Source: Micrococcales bacterium (lineage in GTDB: Bacteria > Actinomycetota > Actinomycetes > Actinomycetales > Cellulomonadaceae). Taken from it: a DNA stretch of 64,000 bases. The position numbers and the translations under genes are program-made. Where the stretch lies: positions 21,987-85,986 of the forward strand of contig WQWY01000002.1 of the NCBI GenBank assembly GCA_009785115.1, read 5' to 3'. Position 1 is the first letter of the stretch, and each line of letters begins with the position of its first letter. The notes below the pieces were generated by a model. It did not search any database. It worked only from the letters and a program-made list of their open reading frames with translations, and had not been told where the DNA came from. Below, one piece after another: positions 14,555 through 25,021 of this stretch.

Positions 14555-14791
14555 ATGCCGACCCAGGATGTGCCCATCTACGAGGCCAAGACCTCTCTGT
14601 CGCGGCTCGTGGTGCGGGTCGAGCGAGGGGAAGAGATCGGGATCACCAGGCATGGACGGCTGGTCGCACGTCTGGTGCCACCACGGCCCCGGCCGACCCG
14701 ACAGGTGGGGATGCTCGACGGCCAGGGCCGGGTGCCTGACGGTTGGGACGATCTCACCGATGCCGATCTCGCAGACTGGTACGGCGCATGA
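14555..14791 (+). CDS. Phd/YefM-family antitoxin
   Basis: MPTQDVPIYEAKTSLSRLVVRVERGEEIGITRHGRLVARLVPP is the Phd/YefM N-terminal fold. ATGA overlap with the downstream PIN toxin. Confidence 0.8.
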   Translation: MPTQDVPIYEAKTSLSRLVVRVERGEEIGITRHGRLVARLVPPRPRPTRQVGMLDGQGRVPDGWDDLTDADLADWYGA

Positions 14792-15162
14792 GCCGGGTCC
14801 TGCTCGACACCAACGTGCTGATCTGGGCGACCGTGTCCTCGTCGCGGCTCACGCCCGCCTGGCGAGACCTGCTGCTGGACCCGAGCAACGACGTGTTCTT
14901 CTCCTCGGTGTCGGTGGCCGAGATCTCGATCAAGGCGTCGCTGGGCAAGCTCGACATGCCCGACGAGTATGTGGCGGTGCTGGCCCGCTCCGGCTATGAA
15001 GAGCTGACGCTGACCGCCTCCCATGCCCAGGCGTTGCGCACGCTGCCCTGGCACCACCGCGACCCGTTCGACCGCCTCATCGTCGCCCAGGCGCTCGTCG
15101 AAGACCTCGCCGTGATGACGTCAGACGCCGCTTTCGCGCAGTACGGGACGGCGCTGGTCTGA
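14788..15162 (+). CDS. vapC: VapC-family PIN-domain toxin
   Basis: MSRVLLDTNVLIW...SVAEISIK...HRDPFDRLIVAQA...MTSD carries the PIN acidic residues in the usual order. ATG14788 overlaps the antitoxin stop. Confidence 0.85.
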   Translation: MSRVLLDTNVLIWATVSSSRLTPAWRDLLLDPSNDVFFSSVSVAEISIKASLGKLDMPDEYVAVLARSGYEELTLTASHAQALRTLPWHHRDPFDRLIVAQALVEDLAVMTSDAAFAQYGTALV

Positions 15163-15190
15163 GGCGACGCCCCCGTGGACCGGGGTGCGT

Positions 15191-15469
15191 CTAGGCGTGG
15201 TAGGCGTCGCGACGGTGGTCGATGTCGACGACGATGACGCGGCGCTGTTCCTCGTCGATCCGGTATCGGACTCGGTACTCGCCCCGCCGTGCGCGGTAGT
15301 AACCCGCGAAGGGGGCTCGCAGAGGGGCGCCTACCCGGCGTGGGTTGTCCGCGAGCGGGCCAGCGACGAACTCGTACGCGGCGAACGCGGCCGAGGGCGG
15401 GAGCGTCTCGGACAGGGCTCGGCGTGCGCCTGGAGCCAGGACGACCTCGTAGCGGTCGTCACCGGGCAT
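15191..15469 (-). CDS. RelE/ParE-family toxin
   Basis: 92 aa; ...PFAGYYRARRGEYRVRYRIDEEQRRVIVVDIDHRRDAY. Overlaps the upstream antitoxin by 11 nt. Confidence 0.8.
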   Translation of the reverse strand: MPGDDRYEVVLAPGARRALSETLPPSAAFAAYEFVAGPLADNPRRVGAPLRAPFAGYYRARRGEYRVRYRIDEEQRRVIVVDIDHRRDAYHA

Positions 15470-15746
15470 GGCGGCGGCGCTCGGCCATCAGGGCGGCCAT
15501 CTCGTCGAGCGTGGTGGTCTGGCCGTGTGCGACATCCTCTTCCGCCTGGGCGATCCGGGCCTGCGCGTCCGGGTCTGAGAGCAGCTCGAGCGTCGCCTCC
15601 ATGGACTCCAAGTCCTCGGCTGACATGATCACGACGTACTTGCGGCCGTTCCGCGTGACGTTGACACGATCATGCGTGCGGAAGACCTCGTCGGCGATCT
15701 CCGAGAGGCGAGCCTTCGCCTCGGCCAAGGGCAGCACAACGCTCAT
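15459..15746 (-). CDS. Phd/YefM-family antitoxin
   Basis: MSVVLPLAEAKARLSEIADEVFRTHDRVNVTRNGRKYVVIMSAEDLESMEATLELL is a classic YefM pattern. ATG15746 chosen over the track start at 15815. Confidence 0.85.
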   Translation of the reverse strand: MSVVLPLAEAKARLSEIADEVFRTHDRVNVTRNGRKYVVIMSAEDLESMEATLELLSDPDAQARIAQAEEDVAHGQTTTLDEMAALMAERRRHAR

Positions 15747-15764
15747 AGACCAGAATTGTAGTCT
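15747..15764. promoter_or_regulatory. Imperfect palindrome and TACAAT -10 box abutting the phd start codon (probable operator, near-leaderless transcript)
   Basis: agaccagaattgtagtct is a 7-of-9 half-site palindrome centred on AATT. On the coding strand, TACAAT lies 9-14 nt before the ATG. Confidence 0.35.
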
Positions 15765-15925
15765 GTCCGTTGAGGGTGGGCAAGGAGGTCCCTCAGCCTG
15801 TGTGATCGACGACACCCTCGGGCAGCGCTGTCGCTGGCGCCGGGGGCCAGGCGTGCTGTGGGTTCGCCGCCCCCGATTTCACGCTTCCGTGTCGTGCGGT
15901 AGCCCGATAAGCTGAGGTCGGCACG

Positions 15926-18268
15926 ATGGCAGACAGGAGGTGTGCGGTGGCTCGGTGGGCGACGATCAGCAACGACAGCCCTACCGTGATCGACGCCTTG
16001 GACCGGGGTGCGCTGGTGGATCGCATCGTGGGCCTCGTGGAGGAGGTGCAGGCACCGTTCACGCTGGGGGTGTACGGGGGCTGGGGGTCGGGCAAGTCGT
16101 CCATCATGAAACGGGTGCGGTGGCGGCTGGACCCGCCGCGTGACGGTCGCCCGCTGGCCGGACCGCCTCGCGGGGCACCGGTGTCGGAGCCCGCCGGCGA
16201 GGACGACCTGCGGTGGCGTCGCACCGTGTGGTTCAACGCCTGGGAGCACCAGAACGACACCGACCCGGCGGTGGCGCTGCTGCAAGAGGCCCGCCGGATG
16301 CTGCGCCCGTCGTTGTGGAACCGGTGGCGCATGCGCAAGTGGTTCCGGATTCTTCGGGACGCCATCGGCCCGGCGCTGGAGAAGGCCGGGCAGCCGGTCG
16401 CGGCGGTCGGTGGCCCGTTGACCGCCTGGCGCCAGTCGGTCGAGCGGGTCAACCGCGACCTGTTCGCCGTCCAGGAAGACCAGGTGCGCAAGCGCGAGGC
16501 CTTCACCGAGATCGTGAACCTGCTCGCCAAACGCGCCGACAGGGGCAAGATCATCATCTTCATCGACGACCTCGACAGGTGCGACGACGACAAAGTGGCC
16601 CGGCGTCTGCTCGACGACATCAAGACCTACCTCGACCACTCCCGGTGCGTCTTCGTCGTCGGGGTCAACTCGGCCAAGCTGCGCGCCCAGCGCGACGATG
16701 CCCAGGATGACGGTTCCCAGGGGGCGGGGCACCGAGGGGAAAGCCTGGGAGAGGATCGCCTCAACAAGATCATCAACTACCCGTTCTACGTCCCCCCGCT
16801 GGAGAAGGAACAGTACGGCCACTTCGTCGTGCGGATGCTGAAGGAATGCTTCGGGTGGGAGAGCGGCAACGCGGGAGGCGACAGCACGAAGCCCCCGCCC
16901 GACCACCGGCTGGACGTACCGCAGATCCAGAAGGTCGCTGACATCCTGAAGGAGATCCTGGCCGCCCGCTCAGCCTCTGTGCGCGAGACGGTGCGCCTGT
17001 GCAACGTTTTCATCGTCAACCACGAGCTCACGAGCAGCTCCTTCGGCGAGACCGGTCTGTGGGGCGACTACCGCCCCGAGGCCGTCGCTGTCCTCTCAGC
17101 CGTCCAGGCGTTCTACCCCGAGGCGCACGAGTGGCTGTGCAGCGAACAGGACTGGCCAGCAGACAAGGCAGAGACGTCGGCCGCCGAGGGGAAGCTGCGG
17201 TGGCTGTTCGGCAGCACCTCGACCCCTGTGGAGGCTCTTCGAGGCGGTATGTCGTTGAGGGGCACCAAGGTGCTCGATCAGGCCCGCCGGGTCGTGAAAC
17301 TGCCTGAGGGCCGAGAGCGTCTGCCGCTGTACCTCAGCATGTGGGGCCACCCCCACCAGTCCTTCGACAGGCACAACAGCCGGTGGAACCACGAATATCG
17401 GGCGCGCCAAGACATGGACCTCGTCCAGACGTTGGAGTGGATCAGGAGCCCGCAGGGCCGGGTCGCGGGCAAATCGGCCTGGGAAACGGGCGACCTGCGC
17501 GTCGTCAAGCTGGGCAAGCACTGGTGGTGGGTCGTCACCGACGACGAGCGATTGAAGCAGGAGATAGAAGACCTCAGAAAGGAGCGCTCTGGTCTCGACG
17601 GCGAGAATGAGGGCGACCGGGAGCGGATGAGCGGGATCGACAGGGCCATCGCAGCCCGGGAAGAAGCGCTCGCCTCGTTCGAGGGAGAGGTGCCCCGTGC
17701 GCTGTTGCTGTCCGAGGGCATGGTGGACGCCATGCAGTATGACAGCGAGGCTCACAGTTTTTCCGAGTGGAGAGACGCGAAGCCGGGTGCCGAGCTCAAG
17801 GGAGCCCTGTGGAGAGACTCGACGCTGCGGCACTGGTTGCGCACCGACTTCGCCGACGACCACCTTCCGGCTGACGTTCGAGATGCCGTGCTCACAGTCA
17901 CCACGACGACTGAGACCGACTGGGCTGGGCCAGAGAAGTTTCAGAACTGGGACGAGAAGGCAAAGAACGAGCAGAGAGGCGAGGCGCTCGCAAAAGACAA
18001 GCGGGACGACGAGACGATCTTCTTGCTCAAATGGGAAGAGGTGTTCCCGGAGGGCTCCCCCTTTGTCTTGGGCGAAGTAGATGTGGACGCGCGTGGACCG
18101 GACGGCGCTGTGAGCTTCTGGTGGTTGCGCTCGCCTGGCAGCTACCCAATCTACGCCTTGGGGGTGCTGCCTTCCTCGCTCGCGGGCCCCGACCTCCGCC
18201 GCAGCCTTTTCTGGGCTGGGGGCTGGGCTGGGGTCCGCCCTGCTTTTTGGCTCAATCTTGAATCTTGA
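15926..18268 (+). CDS. KAP-family P-loop NTPase (no inserted TM helices) fused to a Trp-rich DUF6273-like C-terminal module
   Basis: Walker A GGWGSGKSS (aa 51-59), VWFNAWEHQ, Walker B IIIFIDDLDRC (aa 209-219): the KAP signature. aa ~515-780 carry HWWWVV, ALLLSEG, LWRDSTLRHWL, ETIFLLKWEEVF, FWWLRSPG and GVRPAFWLNL, split by a charged coiled-coil (aa 541-590). GTG15947, 7 nt after AGGAGG, is an alternative start. Confidence 0.8.
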   Translation: MADRRCAVARWATISNDSPTVIDALDRGALVDRIVGLVEEVQAPFTLGVYGGWGSGKSSIMKRVRWRLDPPRDGRPLAGPPRGAPVSEPAGEDDLRWRRTVWFNAWEHQNDTDPAVALLQEARRMLRPSLWNRWRMRKWFRILRDAIGPALEKAGQPVAAVGGPLTAWRQSVERVNRDLFAVQEDQVRKREAFTEIVNLLAKRADRGKIIIFIDDLDRCDDDKVARRLLDDIKTYLDHSRCVFVVGVNSAKLRAQRDDAQDDGSQGAGHRGESLGEDRLNKIINYPFYVPPLEKEQYGHFVVRMLKECFGWESGNAGGDSTKPPPDHRLDVPQIQKVADILKEILAARSASVRETVRLCNVFIVNHELTSSSFGETGLWGDYRPEAVAVLSAVQAFYPEAHEWLCSEQDWPADKAETSAAEGKLRWLFGSTSTPVEALRGGMSLRGTKVLDQARRVVKLPEGRERLPLYLSMWGHPHQSFDRHNSRWNHEYRARQDMDLVQTLEWIRSPQGRVAGKSAWETGDLRVVKLGKHWWWVVTDDERLKQEIEDLRKERSGLDGENEGDRERMSGIDRAIAAREEALASFEGEVPRALLLSEGMVDAMQYDSEAHSFSEWRDAKPGAELKGALWRDSTLRHWLRTDFADDHLPADVRDAVLTVTTTTETDWAGPEKFQNWDEKAKNEQRGEALAKDKRDDETIFLLKWEEVFPEGSPFVLGEVDVDARGPDGAVSFWWLRSPGSYPIYALGVLPSSLAGPDLRRSLFWAGGWAGVRPAFWLNLES

Positions 18269-18272
18269 ATCC
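18254..18272. repeat. Tandem heptamer AATCTTG x2.7 spanning the KAP stop codon
   Basis: aatcttg aatcttg aatcc at 18254-18272, with TGA at 18266-18268. Preceded by a 12-nt tandem ctgggctggggg/ctgggctggggt at 18211-18234. Confidence 0.7.
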
Positions 18273-18281
18273 TTTAATCCG

Positions 18282-18461
18282 ATGGCTCCGTCAGGCGTCA
18301 TCTTTTGCCGCCAGCAGGCGGCTCGAACTATTTTCTTAGACGGAGTGTCTGTGGCTGGGCAGGGCGAGTTTGCGGTGGTGACCAAGACCAAAGAGCTCTG
18401 CCAGTACGTCGTGACGATTGCAGAAAATTCGTCGAAGCGGTCTAGAAAAGAGGTGGTATAG
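18282..18461 (+). CDS. Possible small ORF (59 aa) in an AT-rich spacer; may be non-coding or a gene remnant
   Basis: ATG18282 to TAG18461, ending 1 nt before the next gene's GTG. Codon usage is atypical (many A/T-ending codons). A GC hairpin plus U-rich tract (18307-18338) lies inside it, which argues against translation. Confidence 0.25.
   Translation: MAPSGVIFCRQQAARTIFLDGVSVAGQGEFAVVTKTKELCQYVVTIAENSSKRSRKEVV
18307..18338 (+). terminator. Candidate intrinsic terminator/attenuator after the KAP gene
   Basis: GCCGCC-AGCA-GGCGGC hairpin (18307-18322) followed by TCGAACTATTTTCTTA. The U tract is displaced by 6 nt, so the signal is weak. Confidence 0.3.
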
Positions 18462-19496
18462 GTGGTCGACGCCCCTGGTGACGACCAGAAGGTTCCTGGT
18501 ACCCCGGCCCTTGCCCTGTTCCGGCCGTGGTTCGTCGGTCAGCTCACGGTGGTCCCGTTCCTGGTGGGCCTGTGGTTGCCTCGCGCTGGGCTGAGTCTCA
18601 AGTGGTCCCTCTGGGTGGGGGTGGGTGCTGCTGTCCTCTCCTTCGTCGTGCTCGGTGTCGTCGTGGAACGGAGGGGGAAACGGCGCGCTGGCGCATGGTT
18701 CCGTGTGCTCTCGGCCCCGGCACCAGAGGCGACACAGGGGGGCCGTCGGAGGTTGGGAGACCGTCCGGCGATGGTTGCGAGGGCGGTATGGGCTCTGCTG
18801 AAGGTGCTGTTCGTCGCTGTCGAGCTGGTAGTTCTCGGGTTCGTCGGGTGGTTGGCGCTGAGGGAGGTGTTCAGCACGCTCGGCTGGACAGGAGTGGATG
18901 CCCTGATGGTCGCCGTCGTGGTCTGTGTCGCTGTCGCCCTGGTCGGGCTGACGAGCAGCAGCTGGGGCAGGTCCGCCGCGAGCGTACGGCCGTCGTCTGC
19001 TGTGCCCTACACGTGGAAGCCGTCTGCGATGGCGAACCTCTTCGTGGGGCTGGCAGTGGCGGTGCTGGTGTGGGGGAGCGTGGTGGCGGCGCTGGCCTGG
19101 GGTGGTCTGGGTGAGGTCATCGATCCGGTCGGCGCCCCCTCAGGTTGGTCGCTGCCTGTAGGGATCGGGCTGCTGGTGTGTGCCGTGCTCGTCGTGCCGT
19201 GGCTGTTCTGGGCGGGCGACTACTCCCGGCACGTCGACCAGGATGCCCCTCGTGGCTCGGTCACGGGGTGGGTGGCACTCGGCGGTGCGCTGCCCAGCGT
19301 CGTCTTGATGGTCGCTGGGATCGTCATCGCCTCCCGCCAGGAGGTGCCCGACCACCTGCTCGGCTACGTCGACCTGTTCGGCCACCTCGATGCGCTCTCC
19401 TGGGGCTGGGCCATCGTGGTGCCCCTGACCCTCGCGCTTCTCGCCACCGTCTACCTGCGCGCCGCCGCCATCCCGGCGGCTGTGCGTACCGCCTGA
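18462..19496 (+). CDS. Polytopic membrane protein (about 8 TM segments), no recognisable family
   Basis: GTG18462 sits 5 nt after GAGGTGG. The 344-aa sequence alternates long hydrophobic runs (e.g. WSLWVGVGAAVLSFVVLGVVV, ALLKVLFVAVELVVLGFVGWLAL, GVDALMVAVVVCVAVALVGL) with Arg-rich loops. High GC3. Confidence 0.6.
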   Translation: MVDAPGDDQKVPGTPALALFRPWFVGQLTVVPFLVGLWLPRAGLSLKWSLWVGVGAAVLSFVVLGVVVERRGKRRAGAWFRVLSAPAPEATQGGRRRLGDRPAMVARAVWALLKVLFVAVELVVLGFVGWLALREVFSTLGWTGVDALMVAVVVCVAVALVGLTSSSWGRSAASVRPSSAVPYTWKPSAMANLFVGLAVAVLVWGSVVAALAWGGLGEVIDPVGAPSGWSLPVGIGLLVCAVLVVPWLFWAGDYSRHVDQDAPRGSVTGWVALGGALPSVVLMVAGIVIASRQEVPDHLLGYVDLFGHLDALSWGWAIVVPLTLALLATVYLRAAAIPAAVRTA

Positions 19497-19544
19497 GCGG
19501 CAGCCTCACCGCCTGTGCATGGCTCGAGCGTCGTGCTATCGTGT

Positions 19545-19565
19545 ATATCCATAAAGAATATCCAT
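19545..19565. promoter_or_regulatory. Direct repeat ATATCCAT-N5-ATATCCAT upstream of vapB (candidate operator/promoter)
   Basis: 19545-19552 and 19558-19565, in the only AT-rich patch of the 93-bp intergenic region, about 25 nt before ATG19590. Confidence 0.3.
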
Positions 19566-19589
19566 GAGATCGAACCGCCAGGAGGGACG

Positions 19590-19829
19590 ATGAGCACCGA
19601 GACCACTGTGTTCCGCTCCAACCGCACCCAGGCGGTGCGTCTGCCCAAGGCCATCGCGTTCCCCGAGTCGGTCACCCGTGTGAGGATCACCACCGTGGGG
19701 ACATCCCGGCTCGTCACCCCGGTGGTGCCGACCTGGGACGAGTGGTTCGCGCGCACACAGGGCGTCACCGACGACTTCATGAGCGAGGGGCGATACCAGG
19801 GTCCCGACGCCGAACGCGTCCACCTGTGA
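19590..19829 (+). CDS. vapB: VapB antitoxin (AbrB/SpoVT-type)
   Basis: MSTETTVFRSNRTQAVRLPKAIAFPESVTRVRITTVGTSRLVTPVVPTWDEWF parallels enterobacterial VapB. RBS CAGGAGGGA. GTGA overlap with vapC. Confidence 0.85.
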   Translation: MSTETTVFRSNRTQAVRLPKAIAFPESVTRVRITTVGTSRLVTPVVPTWDEWFARTQGVTDDFMSEGRYQGPDAERVHL

Positions 19830-20236
19830 CGGGCTACCTGCTGGACACCTGCACCTTGGTCGACCTGCTGCGAGCGAAGGACAGGCTCGCGGCCGAGCGG
19901 TTCGCCGCTGCTCAGGGTCAGGTCTTCGCCTCGACCGTGAGCGTGATGGAGCTGGTGTGCGGGGCTGAACGCTCCGCCGACCCTGTGGGCAACCGCGCCC
20001 AGATCGAGGCTCTGCTCACCCTCGTCCGCACCGTGGACTTCGACATGGCCGCCGCCGAGCAGGCTGCTGTCGTCCGCGCCTCCCTGCTGTCCGCAGGAAC
20101 CCCGATCGGTCCCTACGACGTCCAGATCGCCGGGCACGCCCTGGCCCTCGGGATGACGGTGATCACCGCCAACACCGACGAGTTCTCCAGGGTCCCAGGC
20201 CTGACGGTCGAGAGCTGGCGCGCACACCAGAGGTGA
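19826..20236 (+). CDS. vapC: VapC PIN-domain toxin
   Basis: VTGYLLDTCTLVDLLR...SVMELVCGAE...GPYDVQIAGHALALGMTVITANTDEF shows the PIN motifs. GTG19826 overlaps the vapB stop. Confidence 0.85.
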   Translation: MTGYLLDTCTLVDLLRAKDRLAAERFAAAQGQVFASTVSVMELVCGAERSADPVGNRAQIEALLTLVRTVDFDMAAAEQAAVVRASLLSAGTPIGPYDVQIAGHALALGMTVITANTDEFSRVPGLTVESWRAHQR

Positions 20237-20290: not shown

Positions 20291-23200
20291 TCAGCCGAGG
20301 GCGCGGATCACGGCGGCGCGGATGACGGTGTTGGTCCGCTTGCTGCGGCGGGTGATGCCCAGCTCGGTGCGCAGCTCGGCGGACAGCATCGCGTGGGTGC
20401 GTTCTTGGCCGTCGGAGAGCAGCCACGCGGCCAGGGCGTCGAGCTGGTCGTCGCTGTAGGCGCCGATGGCCAGGCCGTGAGGCACGTCGGGGCGGGCGGC
20501 TGCGGGCAGGACCAGCGACGGTTGAGCGGGCTCGAGCGGGACGTCCTGGCTCTCGGTGGAGGCCTCGGGCGCTGTCTGGCTCGGCTCGGCCTTCGGCTCA
20601 GGCTGGTCGGACGTGTCCGTGGCTCGCGTCGGCTCGGCCTCGTGGGTCGGGCTGGCCGTCGGGGCCGAGCCGACTGGTTCTTCGAGGCTCGAGCCCGCGA
20701 GCAGGTCGACCGGTGCGAAGGCATCCGGGTCGTGTGCTGGCTGGACGGTCGACGAGGCGGCGTCCTGGGGCGGTGCGGCGTGGGCAGATGCGCCCTCAGC
20801 CTCGGTCCTTCCCAGCGACGGGTGCGACCTCACCAGGTCGGCGTACAACGGGGAGGTGAGAGGCGGCAGCGGCTCGTCCTTCGCCTTCACCTCGGGCTCG
20901 ACCTCGACCGGTTCCAGCGACGGGTACGCCTTCACCAGCTCGGCATACACCGGGGACGTGGCTGGAGCCGTGGAAGAGAGCGCGCTCGTCGCCACGAGTG
21001 TCTCGGGGCCCAGCATCGAGGCGTACACCGGGAGGTCGACCGTGAACGGTCGGCCAGACAGCGGGGCGACGTCGGGGATGTCCAGCTGCCTGGTCGGTGT
21101 GAACGCCTCCATCATCGAGCTGGCGGCGTGAGCGGGCAGCTGTCGGGTCGGGGGCATGCCCATCTCCGCGGGCAGCAGGGCGTGCAGAGCCCGGCGCACC
21201 CGGTCCACCTCGGCCTGAGGGTCGAGGAAGGCCGCCGCCGACCAGATCCGTACCACGGTCCAGCCCAGCGCCCTCAGACGGTCGGCCACCAGGCGGTCAC
21301 GGGTGCGCACGGAGGGCTCGGCGACGTACGCCTCGTCGTCGGTGAGCACCGCCACCAAGAAGCGGCCCGGCAGGGCCGGGTGCCCCACCACCAGCGGGAT
21401 GTGCACCCCGCCGGGCAGGCCGTGGTCGAGCTCGACGTCCAGGCCGTGGCGCCACAGCCGTTCGGCGATGTCCAGCAGCAGAGGGTCAGCACCGGCCGTC
21501 GGTGCGCCGTCGTTGTTGCCGACCGTGTCGGTGTTCACCTCGGTCTCGCCCTCGCCCCGGCGGCGGGCGAAGTCCAGCAGGTCGGCCAGCAGCCTCGGGC
21601 CCCCGCTGCGCACCCGCTGGTGGTCCAGGTCGTCGGCGCTGAAGCAGGAGACCACGTCCAGCCGGTGCCGGGCCGAGCCCAGCGCGTCCAGCAGCAGGGC
21701 GTCCCCACCGGGCTCGGAGATCGGGCCGAAGGTGTGCAGCACACGCCGGTGCGGGGTGCGGCCCAGGCCCAGCGACAGCACCACGGCGTCACGGGTCAGG
21801 CCGGCCACCGAGGGAAGATCCACCACGACGAAGGGCTCGGCGCGTCCCGCGTCGAAGAACGCCGCCAGCCTCGGGTTCTCCCGCACCTGGGCGAGCACCG
21901 CGTCCCGCACCGCGTCGGCGTGCCGGAAGGTCGCGGTGACCACCGCCAACGACTCGTCAGGGCGGGTCAGGGTGTGGGTGAGCACCATCTCGACCACCGC
22001 GTCGACCTCCGCGCGGGTCGAGTCCACGATGCCCGCCGCCCCGTCCGGCATCCCCCGGCCGTCCACCAGGCGCAGCGTGACCAGGGGGGTCGCGTCGGGC
22101 AGCGGCACCGGGGTGAGCACCCCCGCATAGCCGTGCGCCGCGAGGAACGCGGTCAGGTGCGGGTCACGCCGGGCCCCGTCGGCCCGCAGCGGCACGACAG
22201 GCAGCACCTGCGCCAGCTCGCGGACGGCGCTGCGCGACGCGCACCGGGCGTCCCCGACCACCACCACCTGCCGGCCACGGGCCAGCGCCGGCACCGCGAC
22301 CTCCGTCGGCAGGTGCCCGGCGGCGTCGACCACCACCAGGTCTGCCTGCCGGGCTGGCGGTGCCACGGCGGGCACCAGCATGGGGCTGGCGGCGAGCACC
22401 GGGCGCAGGTACCGGGCGACGTCCGGGTACTTGTCGCTGGCCTCGCGCAGAGAGCCCATCGACTCCTCGACCATCTCCACGAACAGCGACTCGCCCTGCT
22501 CGCGGTGGCGACGCAGACGGGTCTGCAGCCCGGTCACCACGTCGCGCAGCAGCGGGGCGGAACGGGTCGCGACCAGCTCCCGGTCCAGGGCCGCGTACTG
22601 CTCCGACAGCGCCTCGAGAGTCGCGCCGTCGTACCCGGCGAGCGCCGGGTCGAGGTTGAGCACCTGCTCGAACACCGTGCTCCACCAGGCCAGGTCGAGC
22701 TCGGGCGCCGCCAGCCCAGGGGTCACGGCGCGCTGACGCAGGTCCTCGATCAGCGGGCCCAGCCCCGCCGCCTCGGCCTTCGCCAGCAACGTGGTCCGCT
22801 CGGGCAGGCCCTTCAGCGACCTGGCGTCGAAACGCAGCAGGCTCAACCGGTCGGTCAGCTCGTTCAGCGGCAGGTCTGACAGCCGCCGCCCGTGGCTGGG
22901 CAGCACGGCCTCGAGCGCCTCCACGTCGCGGCGCACCGTGGCGAACTCGTCCTCGATCAGCTCGAAGCTCTCCGGCAGGCGCGGCCAGCCACCGGCGGGA
23001 CAGTGCGTGCGCCACGCCTCGCGGCGGGTCTCCACCTCGCGCAGGGCCACGTGCAGGTCAGTGACCGGGCGGCCCGGGCGCACCATGTCCTTGGCCTGCT
23101 TGCGCAGCCGACGCCGCGCCCAACGGGTCATCTCCACATGGTGAGCGGCCCGCCACGCCTTCGGTGCCGTGGCGGCGACCATGTCGGCGGGGCTGCGCTC

Positions 23201-25021
23201 GAACACCTCGGGCAAGAACACGTCGAGAGACGCGCACACGTCAGACAGCACCCGCAGCTGCTCGGCCCAGGCCGTCAGCGACTCGGCCGGGGTCAGCCCC
23301 GTCTCGGCGGCGACCTGGTCGCGGCGCTCGGTCAGCGCGGGCAGGTGGGTGTCCAGCAGGCGTTCCACCCGCCGCAGAGCGACCTCGGCATCGGTGTCCG
23401 TGTGCAGGTCGGCGCCGTACCAGGCGGTGTCGCTCGGACGCACCGTGAACGCGCCCAGCTCGCCCGCGCGGCGCAGGTCAGCCCCCAGCTCGGCACGCCG
23501 GTCGGTGTCGATGACGCGCGCGGCCTCGGTGCTGAGCCGTGCCTTGGTGCGAGGCACCGGGCGTGACGCGGTCAGCGCCGCCAGGTGCTGCAACGCGTCG
23601 AACGCCGACACCCCCCACGGCTCGCGGGGCGTGTGCAGAGCGGTGATGTACGCGGCGAGCTGGTCACGCAGGGCCGTGGTCTGCTGCTGCAGGCCGGTCA
23701 GCGCGTCGGCGTCGATCTCGGGCTCGGCCAGCGTCATCGCACCCAGCAGACGCCTGGTCATGGTGACCCGCCAGCTCGGGCCGCCCGGCACGTCCAGCAG
23801 CAGGTCGTCCAGGCCGAGCCGGGCCAGCGCGCCGTGCAGCGCCAAGGTGCCGCGCCGGCTGCCCGGCACGTACAGCACCGTCTTGCCGGCGGCGGCGGCC
23901 TCGGCGACGATCCCGGCGACAGTCCCGGCCACGTCGGCCCCGGTCGGGGCGTCCACGAAGACGTGCGCACCCGAGGCGACCACGTCCAGCACGTGTCGCT
24001 GCGCGTCGTCCAGATCACCGACGCCGCGCTCGGTCGTCAGGTCCCGGTCGCCGTGGGGTGGGGCGGGCAGGTCAGCAGCGAGCTCGGCGATGGCGTCCTC
24101 GTCGCCGGCCAGGGCCGCGACCACCTCGTGACGGTCCAGCCCGGCCAGCCCGTCCAGGTCGTCCACGAGCACCTGACCGGGGTGCACGAACGTCCCGACC
24201 ACCCGCCGGTCCACCAGCTCGAAGTCAGGGAGCACCGCCTCGCCCAGGGCGGTCAGGCGCGCGAGCGCCGCGCGCGGGTCGAACCCGCCGTCAGCGAACG
24301 TCGCCGCTGCCAGCGACGTCGGGTCGAGCAGAGCGCCCCGCGCCCGCAGGGTGCGGGCCAGCACCGGGTTCACCTCGACGGTGGGTTCCAGGGTGAGCTC
24401 GTAGTCGCTCTGCGCCGACCCGCGGGCCTGGACGGTGACCGGGCGCAGCAGCACCGGCACCCGGACCGTCTGCGGAGGGTCGGCAGGCTCGGCCGTGGCG
24501 TCGCAGGAGGGGACCGTCGGGGTGGAGGACGTCGCCGCGGCCAGGGCCCCGACGTCGTCGGTCTGCGTGGTCTCAGCATTGACCGTCCAGGTCGCCACGC
24601 CGATGGCCAGCGAGGTCGGTGCCAGGCCGTAGCGCTGCGTGGTGACGTCGGCCCGTGCCGCCACGGCGCGGGCACGACGACGGGCCGTCGCGAGGGTCAC
24701 ACCGTCGCGCACCAGGTTCGACAGCCTGGTGGGTCGCCCGGCGAACAGCTGGGCCATGCCCGAGGGGTGCGCGGACGTCAGGTCGAGCGCGGCGTCGGCG
24801 AGCAGGTCGATGTCGCTGCGGGCTGAGCCGCCGGCCTCGTCGACCAGGGCTTCGCGCCATGCGGCCACGGCCTTGTCGACCAGCTCGCTGCGCGACAGGG
24901 TGGAGACCAGCGCGACGGGGCGGGTCTCGTCGGTCTCGGGCTGGTCGTGGTCCGACGCCGGGGTGTGCGCAGGCGCGCTCGCACCCGGCACGTTCACACC
25001 AGAGACATTCACACGCAGCAC
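20291..25021 (-). CDS. Giant DUF4011 / Upf1-like SF1 helicase-fold / DUF559-type REase-fold / DUF3320 protein with degenerate catalytic motifs
   Basis: 1576-aa uninterrupted ORF with high GC3. The domain order is recognised from conserved blocks (e.g. ...AAAAGKTVLYVPG..., ...QVVVVGDAR..., ...LGWTVVRIWSAAAFLDP..., ...LRTELGITRRSKRTNTVIRAAVIRALG). The GTG start at 25021 is uncertain. Confidence 0.8.
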   Translation of the reverse strand: MLRVNVSGVNVPGASAPAHTPASDHDQPETDETRPVALVSTLSRSELVDKAVAAWREALVDEAGGSARSDIDLLADAALDLTSAHPSGMAQLFAGRPTRLSNLVRDGVTLATARRRARAVAARADVTTQRYGLAPTSLAIGVATWTVNAETTQTDDVGALAAATSSTPTVPSCDATAEPADPPQTVRVPVLLRPVTVQARGSAQSDYELTLEPTVEVNPVLARTLRARGALLDPTSLAAATFADGGFDPRAALARLTALGEAVLPDFELVDRRVVGTFVHPGQVLVDDLDGLAGLDRHEVVAALAGDEDAIAELAADLPAPPHGDRDLTTERGVGDLDDAQRHVLDVVASGAHVFVDAPTGADVAGTVAGIVAEAAAAGKTVLYVPGSRRGTLALHGALARLGLDDLLLDVPGGPSWRVTMTRRLLGAMTLAEPEIDADALTGLQQQTTALRDQLAAYITALHTPREPWGVSAFDALQHLAALTASRPVPRTKARLSTEAARVIDTDRRAELGADLRRAGELGAFTVRPSDTAWYGADLHTDTDAEVALRRVERLLDTHLPALTERRDQVAAETGLTPAESLTAWAEQLRVLSDVCASLDVFLPEVFERSPADMVAATAPKAWRAAHHVEMTRWARRRLRKQAKDMVRPGRPVTDLHVALREVETRREAWRTHCPAGGWPRLPESFELIEDEFATVRRDVEALEAVLPSHGRRLSDLPLNELTDRLSLLRFDARSLKGLPERTTLLAKAEAAGLGPLIEDLRQRAVTPGLAAPELDLAWWSTVFEQVLNLDPALAGYDGATLEALSEQYAALDRELVATRSAPLLRDVVTGLQTRLRRHREQGESLFVEMVEESMGSLREASDKYPDVARYLRPVLAASPMLVPAVAPPARQADLVVVDAAGHLPTEVAVPALARGRQVVVVGDARCASRSAVRELAQVLPVVPLRADGARRDPHLTAFLAAHGYAGVLTPVPLPDATPLVTLRLVDGRGMPDGAAGIVDSTRAEVDAVVEMVLTHTLTRPDESLAVVTATFRHADAVRDAVLAQVRENPRLAAFFDAGRAEPFVVVDLPSVAGLTRDAVVLSLGLGRTPHRRVLHTFGPISEPGGDALLLDALGSARHRLDVVSCFSADDLDHQRVRSGGPRLLADLLDFARRRGEGETEVNTDTVGNNDGAPTAGADPLLLDIAERLWRHGLDVELDHGLPGGVHIPLVVGHPALPGRFLVAVLTDDEAYVAEPSVRTRDRLVADRLRALGWTVVRIWSAAAFLDPQAEVDRVRRALHALLPAEMGMPPTRQLPAHAASSMMEAFTPTRQLDIPDVAPLSGRPFTVDLPVYASMLGPETLVATSALSSTAPATSPVYAELVKAYPSLEPVEVEPEVKAKDEPLPPLTSPLYADLVRSHPSLGRTEAEGASAHAAPPQDAASSTVQPAHDPDAFAPVDLLAGSSLEEPVGSAPTASPTHEAEPTRATDTSDQPEPKAEPSQTAPEASTESQDVPLEPAQPSLVLPAAARPDVPHGLAIGAYSDDQLDALAAWLLSDGQERTHAMLSAELRTELGITRRSKRTNTVIRAAVIRALG
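20812..20956 (-). repeat. Internal 43-bp imperfect duplication, 102 bp apart, encoding SP[VL]YA[ED]LV[KR]x[YH]PSL
   Basis: ccagcgacgggtgcgacctcaccaggtcggcgtacaacgggga (20812-20854) versus ccagcgacgggtacgccttcaccagctcggcatacaccgggga (20914-20956). Confidence 0.65.

Follow-up and report, generated by a model that had tools for sequence, protein, structure and literature searches.

A KAP NTPase–DUF6273 gene and a neighbouring membrane-protein gene in a Micrococcales genome as the probable remains of a diversity-generating retroelement cassette

Results and Discussion

Two genes and a scar between them

We analysed a 64,000-nt stretch of DNA from a Micrococcales bacterium (assembly GCA_009785115.1, contig WQWY01000002.1, positions 21,987 to 85,986; hereafter the window), in which a gene for a KAP NTPase with a C-terminal DUF6273 domain is followed on the same strand by a gene for a membrane protein with several transmembrane (TM) segments (Table 1). 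An earlier reading of the letters alone had taken this pair for an abortive-infection-like module of an undescribed kind, composed of an NTPase switch with a lectin-like sensor and a separately encoded membrane effector. The pairing of the KAP and membrane genes is real, and what that original prediction missed is a diversity-generating retroelement (DGR). The KAP gene appears to end in a DGR variable repeat (VR), it is followed by a remnant of the gene avd, and the template repeat (TR) and reverse transcriptase (RT) seem to have been deleted, leaving a scar.

Table 1. Features of the KAP NTPase–DUF6273 locus and of the flanking toxin–antitoxin pairs, with positions in the window.
Feature	Position	Strand	Remarks
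Phd/YefM antitoxin and PIN toxin pair	14555..15162	+	Pfam
ParE/RelE-type toxin and Phd/YefM antitoxin pair	15191..15815	-	Pfam
KAP NTPase–DUF6273 gene (probable former DGR target)	15926..18268	+	780-aa open reading frame; Pfam KAP_NTPase and DUF6273
Walker A, GGWGSGKSS	16076..16102	+	Invariant across 8/8 homologues
Walker B, IIIFIDDLDRC	16550..16582	+	DDLDRC invariant in the family
DUF6273 (C-type-lectin-like) module, aa 523-780	17492..18265	+	Alignment to canonical DUF6273 proteins
Variable repeat, template now absent	18109..18245	+	Encodes aa 728-774 (47 residues); aligns to the L001 and L002 TRs
Post-VR flank ending in hairpin HP1	18246..18302	+	HP1 at 18281-18302, 9-pair G+C-rich stem, loop GTCA
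Hairpin HP2, GCCGCC-AGCA-GGCGGC	18307..18322	+	T-rich tract 7 nt downstream; the hairpin of the original prediction
avd remnant	18351..18461	+	About 32 first codons, junction-derived codons, stop TAG at 18459-18461; tblastn
Predicted deletion junction	18443..18465	.	L001 8250-10104 (~1.85 kb: rest of avd, TR, RT) without counterpart
Membrane protein, 344 aa, ~8 TM segments	18462..19496	+	Truncated remote NCS1 permease homologue
MazE/AbrB-like antitoxin and PIN toxin pair	19515..20236	+	Pfam; antitoxin match weak

Pfam places KAP_NTPase at aa 38-362 of the open reading frame (ORF) (E = 2.9e-22, 79.7 bits against a cut-off of 20) and DUF6273 at aa 624-777 (E = 9.4e-8, 32.5 bits against 23.5), confirming both domain assignments and the fusion of a C-terminal lectin-like module to the NTPase. 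The sequence motifs on which these assignments had been based lie where they were claimed to lie: GGWGSGKSS at aa 51-59 (with K57), VWFNAWEHQ at 101-109 and IIIFIDDLDRC at 209-219 in the NTPase, and HWWWVV at 532-537, ALLLSEG at 592-598, LWRDSTLRHWL at 628-638, ETIFLLKWEEVF at 696-707, FWWLRSPG at 731-738 and GVRPAFWLNL at 769-778 in the module. TM helices inserted within the NTPase domain are common, though not universal, among KAP NTPases. The window protein has none of these typical helices; on the Kyte-Doolittle scale its 19-residue means peak at 0.55 in the stretch that separates Walker A from Walker B and at 1.04 in the protein as a whole, in agreement with the earlier view of it as a soluble NTPase. 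Translation probably starts at the GTG at 15947, giving 773 aa, because AGGAGG stands 6 nt before it, relatives align from 15946 onwards and P0001, the database form, has 773 aa; residue numbers given here are those of the 780-aa ORF and shift by 7 if that start is used. QatA, PifA and PDC-S20 were each considered as an identity for the KAP part and rejected, the PADLOC matches being partial and N-terminal only; the NCBIfam QatA model reaches 70.7 bits against a cut-off of 600, again at the N-terminus only.

The DUF6273 module aligns motif for motif with the canonical DUF6273 proteins P0068 and P0069, PF19789 is matched by 11 of 11 aligned members of the module family, and the module profile matches the DUF6273 N-terminal domain of IgA protease 9qa6 (E = 7e-8). 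As had been described, the domain is split by a charged insert at aa 541-590 (17546-17695), in which 24 of the 50 residues are charged. Removal of the insert raises the DUF6273 score from 32.5 to 37.6 bits, and the insert occurs only in the window protein and P0002, six of the eight homologues being without it. A C-type-lectin-like fold is assigned to the module because of published DUF6273 models. AlphaFold2 modelled the C-terminal 281 aa with a mean predicted local distance difference test (pLDDT) of 52.9, the inserted helix being the sole confident part, and an insert-excised construct with a pLDDT of 56.2 and a predicted template modelling score (pTM) of 0.54. A Foldseek search of the PDB with the low-confidence module model returned just noise at E>4 and no match. 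In this otherwise poor model the 50-residue insert is helical with pLDDT >90 and interrupts the domain after its first strands.

Relatives of the gene lie in complete DGR cassettes

Closest to the window protein are P0002, encoded at locus L001, with 67% identity, and P0003, encoded at L002 and L003, with 50%. These loci have the order KAP-DUF6273 gene, avd, TR, RT gene and membrane gene; L001, for example, contains KAP, bAvd and RVT_1 genes and a gene for a 411-aa membrane protein, P0065. The TR is a ~140-nt repeat of the 3' end of the KAP gene, located in the non-coding gap between avd and the RT gene. TR and VR of L001 disagree at 9 of the 20 TR adenines and at none of the 117 remaining positions; in L002 they disagree at 13 of the 19 TR adenines and at 2 of the 121 remaining positions. 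In the peptide that the TR would encode (...SPGNNPNNAWAVLPS..PDNHNNNFWAG...), the Asn codons coincide exactly with the columns that are hypervariable among the aligned proteins. The RTs of L001, L002 and L003 are recognized by RVT_1 (1e-13 and 9e-16) and possess the motifs LGNQTSQ and YMDD, and the full-length Avd proteins match Pfam bAvd at 5e-8 and 6e-9, under the curated cut-off. Each intact cassette ends with the membrane gene, which overlaps the stop codon of the RT gene by 4-7 nt and encodes a protein of 384-411 aa.

By all of these features L001 and L002 are active-looking DGRs that have the KAP-DUF6273 protein as their target. In these relatives RT and Avd would make a cDNA of the TR that is miscopied at adenines, and this cDNA would then overwrite the VR. 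Such retrohoming would randomise ~10 codons in the stretch for the ~50 C-terminal residues of the lectin-like domain; by arithmetic, each VR could take 15^8 x 4 x 4, or roughly 4x10^10, protein variants.

The window locus has lost the core of its DGR

Comparison with L001 by blastn shows how the window locus departs from this arrangement. Window 15946-18439 corresponds without a break to L001 5749-8249, which covers the gene, the post-VR flank and ~32 avd codons, and homology resumes at window 18482-18658 with L001 10105-10281, at codon 12 of the membrane gene. The avd stub (18351-18446) is 72% identical to aa 1-32 of the L001 Avd (tblastn, E = 4e-10) and 70% identical to the L002 Avd, and the stop codon that ends it directly abuts the GTG of the membrane ORF (18462). 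The L001 and L002 RTs found no RT by tblastn over the whole window (best E = 0.12), and a second copy resembling the VR or TR was likewise not found there. Each component of a complete autonomous DGR, namely RT, a TR/VR pair and full-length avd, is missing from the window locus. Because L001 homology breaks at this point, an avd stub is left behind and the 64 kb hold neither RT nor TR, the 194-nt spacer between the two genes is most simply read as a deletion scar.

A second locus, L018, tells a similar story. It retains a KAP-DUF6273 gene with its VR, the flank with hairpin HP1, the last 55 codons of an RT gene (at 62% identity to the RT of L002) and, after these, the membrane gene. Judged by its different junctions, L018 represents an independent loss of the same DGR core, in which both outer genes were again kept. 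The converse order of events, in which the avd-TR-RT block was inserted later into an ancestral arrangement of KAP gene, stub and membrane gene, is unlikely, since fragments of avd and of the RT gene sit at the scars.

The window VR carries the marks of past mutagenesis

The window VR differs from the L001 TR at 13 of 20 adenine sites and at 15 of 117 other sites (p = 2e-6). Since the differences are enriched at adenine sites, the window VR appears to have undergone adenine mutagenesis. The Asn codons of the TR correspond to S739, Y740, I742, Y743 and L757-L761 in the window protein, and the VR lies at the 3' end of the gene inside DUF6273, as in known DGR targets. Compared with the L001 copy, the KAP gene as a whole has a ratio of nonsynonymous to synonymous substitution rates (dN/dS) of 0.37, and the VR segment one of 0.70.

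Two hairpins follow the VR. The A/T-rich post-VR flank together with HP1 is kept in seven of eight target loci, solitary ones included, among proteins that are 44-67% identical. In phage BPP-1 a G+C-rich hairpin/cruciform at the target site is needed for retrohoming (PMC3240598). HP1, a candidate for such an element, resembles this structure in form; unlike the phage DGR hairpins, its loop GTCA is off the GRNA consensus and it stands ~36 nt from the end of the TR/VR, against 4-34 bp in phages. One U·C mismatch interrupts its stem, and only in the window copy.

The original prediction had warned that a G+C-rich hairpin with a U-rich tract might uncouple the two genes transcriptionally. This hairpin exists as HP2, but it is the second of two, and HP1 is the more widely kept. 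Four loci (window, L001, L002 and L006) share HP2, and the changes in its L002 stem are compensatory. Its identification as a simple intrinsic terminator was rejected, since a terminator scan did not flag it and its T tract stands 7 nt away; it may nevertheless terminate transcription.

The membrane protein is related to NCS1 permeases

Seven clear hydrophobic segments and a weaker N-terminal one are present in the 344-aa ORF 194 nt downstream of the KAP gene, as expected from the earlier description. The public call for this ORF (P0064) comprises 241 aa, starts at Met104 and omits the first two TM helices. The longer form is supported over it because P0065, P0070 and P0071 are homologous to the ORF from aa 8 onwards. 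Its dN/dS relative to L001 is 0.41.

The ORF matches nothing in Pfam, PADLOC or NCBIfam; a Pfam scan that included PF02133 left 5 of 5 members of the family without a match, and no PDB sequence matched the membrane profile. The claim that the protein lacks recognizable motifs did not hold up, as it has two in common with NCS1 permeases. The next-best library matches to the family are NCS1 permeases (Transp_cyt_pur, E 2.5e-5 to 8.8e-4), and hhalign aligned the family with NCS1 at 98.5% probability (E = 2.6e-15, 235 columns), the reversed and column-shuffled controls giving <=1.6%. The match is anchored on LFxPWFxx(N/Q)x(S/T)V in TM1 and on (A/G)DYSR(Y/H). With ~8 TM segments, the protein has neither the Pfam match nor the 12-TM LeuT-type architecture of NCS1 members. 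These alignments identify it as a shortened, very remote NCS1 derivative and not as a member of that family. Its Arg/Lys-rich loop (aa 69-114) should be cytoplasmic. No part of the family varies more than the TM2-TM3 loop; in P0070 (L002 13511-14665) this cytoplasmic loop contains at aa ~95-115 a zinc-knuckle-like CxxC...CxxC motif (LCERCRARPATLCEQCAAR), which is absent from the window protein.

The membrane family comprises ~5 known loci, namely the window, L001, L002/L003, L014 and L018, with the homologues P0065 (L001), P0066, P0070 (L002) and P0071 (L018). A profile search of 1.84 billion representative proteins yielded one further member, P0071, so the family is essentially confined to these cassettes in that collection. 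A metagenome scan with the membrane alignment returned two contigs, both already known. The earlier suggestion that the membrane gene is a genuine partner is supported by its position: a KAP gene lies upstream on the same strand in four of four loci with readable upstream DNA. The expected co-occurrence thus holds in this direction; in the other it fails, as four KAP loci have no membrane gene.

The family is small and its cassettes are mobile or accessory

The full KAP-DUF6273 architecture was found in only eight proteins among 5.8 billion protein clusters (44-100% identical), all of Micrococcales type, and those with a named source come from Micrococcales or Cellulomonas metagenome-assembled genomes (MAGs). 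A 185k-species genome collection held three loci in two MAGs; P0004 has no contig placement. Cassettes follow dnaE in L001 and a DEAD-box helicase gene in L002, and the window locus stands between mshD and a large helicase gene. In such unrelated contexts the locus is variable DNA, mobile or accessory, and not the conserved core DNA that would have refuted the original prediction. Following the intact cassette of L002, in a termite-gut MAG, is a two-gene pair (14718-15553; a 140-aa protein and a DUF5615 protein) that is possibly toxin-antitoxin-like, echoing the flanks of the window.

Solitary KAP-DUF6273 genes, with neither a DGR core nor a membrane gene, occupy L005/L006, L007/L008, L009 and L010. 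Several (L005/L006 7323-10310; L007 5510-8416; L010 1002-4319) adjoin a Macro-domain gene, in a synteny of lpdA-like, PGM, Macro, KAP, flavodoxin-like and TetR genes that recurs in Micrococcales and Cellulomonas MAGs. This synteny suggests a vertically inherited second copy. One of the solitary proteins, P0005 (L006), is encoded in the same MAG as the L002 cassette, on another contig. Its VR has 11 mismatches in 139 nt to the TR of that cassette and retains a run of unmutated template Asn codons, so P0005 is probably a second, remote target of the same DGR. Among viral contigs neither an exact match to the VR frame nor a similar locus was found; one IMG/VR contig (L017 1180-1941) encodes a KAP NTPase without DUF6273 that is 28% identical to window aa 35-301.

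A probable decayed cassette with a putative KAP-lectin sensor

Taken as a whole, the locus is best explained as a decayed DGR cassette whose product would be a KAP-lectin sensor, an account to which we give better than even confidence. Its parts do not stand equally firm: that the locus is a fossil DGR is very probable, and the defence role with a membrane-partner mechanism is more tentative, at or somewhat short of an even chance, being drawn from analogy. Both outer genes seem to be under purifying selection, since they are intact and have dN/dS values of 0.37 and 0.41. As no local template is left after the ~1.85-kb deletion, the VR would be fixed in one state.

The cytoplasmic KAP-lectin protein would, we propose, act as a ligand sensor without an effector domain of its own. 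Ligand bound at the variable lectin surface would switch the KAP NTPase, with the co-inherited NCS1-like membrane protein conveying the output. An anti-phage or other conflict function is the likeliest role, and with its diversifier lost the strain would keep a hard-wired receptor specificity. We favour a sensor, switch and membrane partner because the KAP protein has no effector domain, its lectin tip is variable, and there are precedents both for KAP proteins in defence and for NTPase antigen sensors.

Several points weigh against this account. The defence role is drawn from domain analogy and context, and the PADLOC and NCBIfam defence matches are partial and far under the family cut-offs. 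The predicted lectin fold is not confirmed by our models (pLDDT 53-56) or by Foldseek. With ~9 known loci in the whole family, the statistics are thin. The partnership of KAP and membrane protein would not be obligatory in cis, given the four KAP loci without a membrane gene. The VR could still be served by a DGR in a part of the genome that lies beyond the 64 kb. Finally, neither RT nor avd is present in the 195 nt that are readable upstream of the L014 membrane gene. There (L014 1-195) the DNA turns A/T-rich and unrelated to either gene before the contig ends, and it may represent a third, different rearrangement or an insertion.

A bolder version of the decayed-cassette account is that the KAP-lectin and NCS1-like proteins form a two-component anti-phage pair whose receptor surface arises by somatic-style hypermutation, and that lineages repeatedly delete the diversifier after a useful specificity has arisen, turning an adaptive receptor into an innate one. 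We think this unlikely, though not far-fetched; if true, the window would hold a fixed receptor, and KAP NTPases would have in the transporter-derived protein a new kind of defence effector or membrane dock.

It is improbable that the two genes constitute a self-contained, undescribed abortive-infection module with an NTPase switch and a membrane effector, unrelated to any named system. The pair has stayed intact through two independent losses of the DGR core, its KAP part resembles defence NTPases (PADLOC PDC-S20, QatA and PifA matches), and its accessory context is rich in toxin-antitoxin pairs. The two genes are, however, demonstrably the ends of a DGR cassette, the class of architecture has already been published, four loci have a KAP gene but no membrane gene, and the NCS1-like protein has no known effector activity.

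Less probable again is that the target is still live and that a DGR elsewhere in the genome mutates the window VR in trans. The remote target P0005, which nearly matches the L002 TR from another contig of its MAG, is a model for such action, and the window retains the post-VR flank and hairpins that targeting would need. Against this, the window contains no RT and no TR-like copy, the mismatch in the HP1 stem is unique to it, and the scar points to a former core of its own with nothing to suggest a second one. Least probable, by a little, is that the membrane gene is a passenger, either a degenerate nucleobase-permease relic or a retroelement accessory unlinked to the KAP sensor: its relatives include NCS1 transporters, of whose fold it has about two thirds, it is coupled in intact cassettes to the RT gene and not to the KAP gene, and solitary KAP paralogues exist, but it has been retained in two lineages without a full RT (dN/dS 0.41), whereas an RT accessory would be expected to decay along with the RT, and its family is essentially found only in these cassettes among 1.84 billion representative proteins.

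Relation to known systems

The proposal of an undescribed class that matches no named system was not borne out, as both NTPase-lectin DGR sensors and DUF6273 DGR targets have been published. DGR-diversified antigen sensors that join an NTPase, in some cases a KAP NTPase, to a C-type lectin have been described from DGR clade 5D (Doré et al. 2024, PMC10907252), and NTPase-bearing DGR targets have been catalogued as categories b7-b11 and g1 (Wu et al. 2018, PMC5758913). Like the clade 5D sensors (PMC10907252), the protein described here has a cytoplasmic P-loop NTPase and a C-terminal lectin-type domain with the VR at its tip, and it belongs to a cassette of avd, TR and RT whose DGR can have more than one target. 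Unlike them, its lectin module is DUF6273 and not of the FGE-sulfatase type, and its hosts are Micrococcales and not multicellular Proteobacteria or Cyanobacteria. In place of an adaptor/protease effector there is a truncated NCS1-like protein translationally coupled to the RT, and avd, TR and RT are gone from the window copy.

DUF6273 is a lectin-like DGR-target domain with a C-terminal VR (PMC10743442, PMC11792537, bioRxiv 10.1101/2024.10.15.618418), and the literature on phage DUF6273 proteins describes phages that keep such targets after loss of the DGR. The window module shares the C-terminal VR and the FWWLRSPG...VRPAFWLNL frame with phage DUF6273 targets (the tentaclins and Mtd-like proteins from gut phages). 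The phage proteins are extracellular receptor-binding or decoration proteins with Ig-like domains from phages of Firmicutes; the window DUF6273, unlike these, is fused to an intracellular KAP NTPase on an actinobacterial chromosome.

KAP NTPases with varied C-terminal regions confer phage defence that depends on Walker B, and Tmn and PifA are membrane-linked defence proteins of the KAP type (PMC13552941, bioRxiv 10.1101/2022.08.21.504612). In common with KAP defence proteins (PifA of the F plasmid, Tmn, QatA of QatABCD, EF_KAP), the window protein has both Walker motifs intact, is variable in a C-terminal region of the kind that determines function, and has a link to the membrane. It differs from them in that no TM helices are inserted, the membrane component is encoded by a separate gene, and the sensor domain is, or was, diversified by a retroelement. 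Unlike QatABCD, it has no QatB, QatC or QatD neighbours; its neighbours are toxin-antitoxin genes and the membrane ORF. The membrane protein shares the TM1 motif and (A/G)DYSR(Y/H) with NCS1 symporters (PF02133) and differs from them by having ~8 instead of 12 TM segments, an unalignable middle region, a long Arg-rich cytoplasmic loop, and a distribution limited to DGR cores or their scars.

Three elements look new: a soluble KAP NTPase of Micrococcales that is joined to DUF6273, a conserved gene, coupled to the RT, for a truncated NCS1-like membrane protein, and two independent core deletions that spared the outer genes. A literature search found no paper that links DGRs with a truncated NCS1-like protein. 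The locus would add a rare actinobacterial lineage to the computationally predicted class of DGR-diversified intracellular NTPase sensors, one set apart by its lectin module (DUF6273) and its NTPase (KAP). Having outlived the retroelement in two lineages, the NCS1-like protein is a candidate output or anchor of the soluble KAP NTPase. Fossil targets of this kind escape those DGR surveys that look for the RT. The window suggests a signature by which a spent DGR might be recognized, consisting of an intact target, adenine scars in its last ~140 nt, a post-VR hairpin, and avd or RT stubs at the scar. Intact (L001, L002) and deleted (window, L018) cassettes could serve as natural controls for the contribution of diversification.

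Genomic neighbourhood

The G+C content of the window is ~71% overall and falls to 0.64 across 17-19 kb. The counts given earlier to illustrate the chimeric composition of the KAP gene (49/60 at 16141-16200 and 33/60 at 17941-18000) were exact on recounting. The description of the two genes as bracketed by toxin-antitoxin pairs is also supported, with three flanking pairs found by Pfam, the third through a weak antitoxin match (MazE-like, 18.2 bits against a cut-off of 24.7). The outer flanks are housekeeping genes: ppk (ppk1), mshD, gdh, a NUDIX/phosphatase gene and a penicillin amidase gene. A prophage origin of the locus was rejected, given these flanks and the lack of any phage genes seen in them.

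Adjoining the toxin-antitoxin nest on the minus strand (20291-25021) is a gene for a 1576-aa protein. Its C-terminal helicase region matches PADLOC PDC-S37 (1e-96) and also Hhe, and scores 331 bits against a cut-off of 1500 with the NCBIfam anti-phage ProA model; a REase_MTES_1575 domain lies at aa 1184-1279. This protein may be a defence-type helicase-nuclease or the product of a conserved actinobacterial gene.

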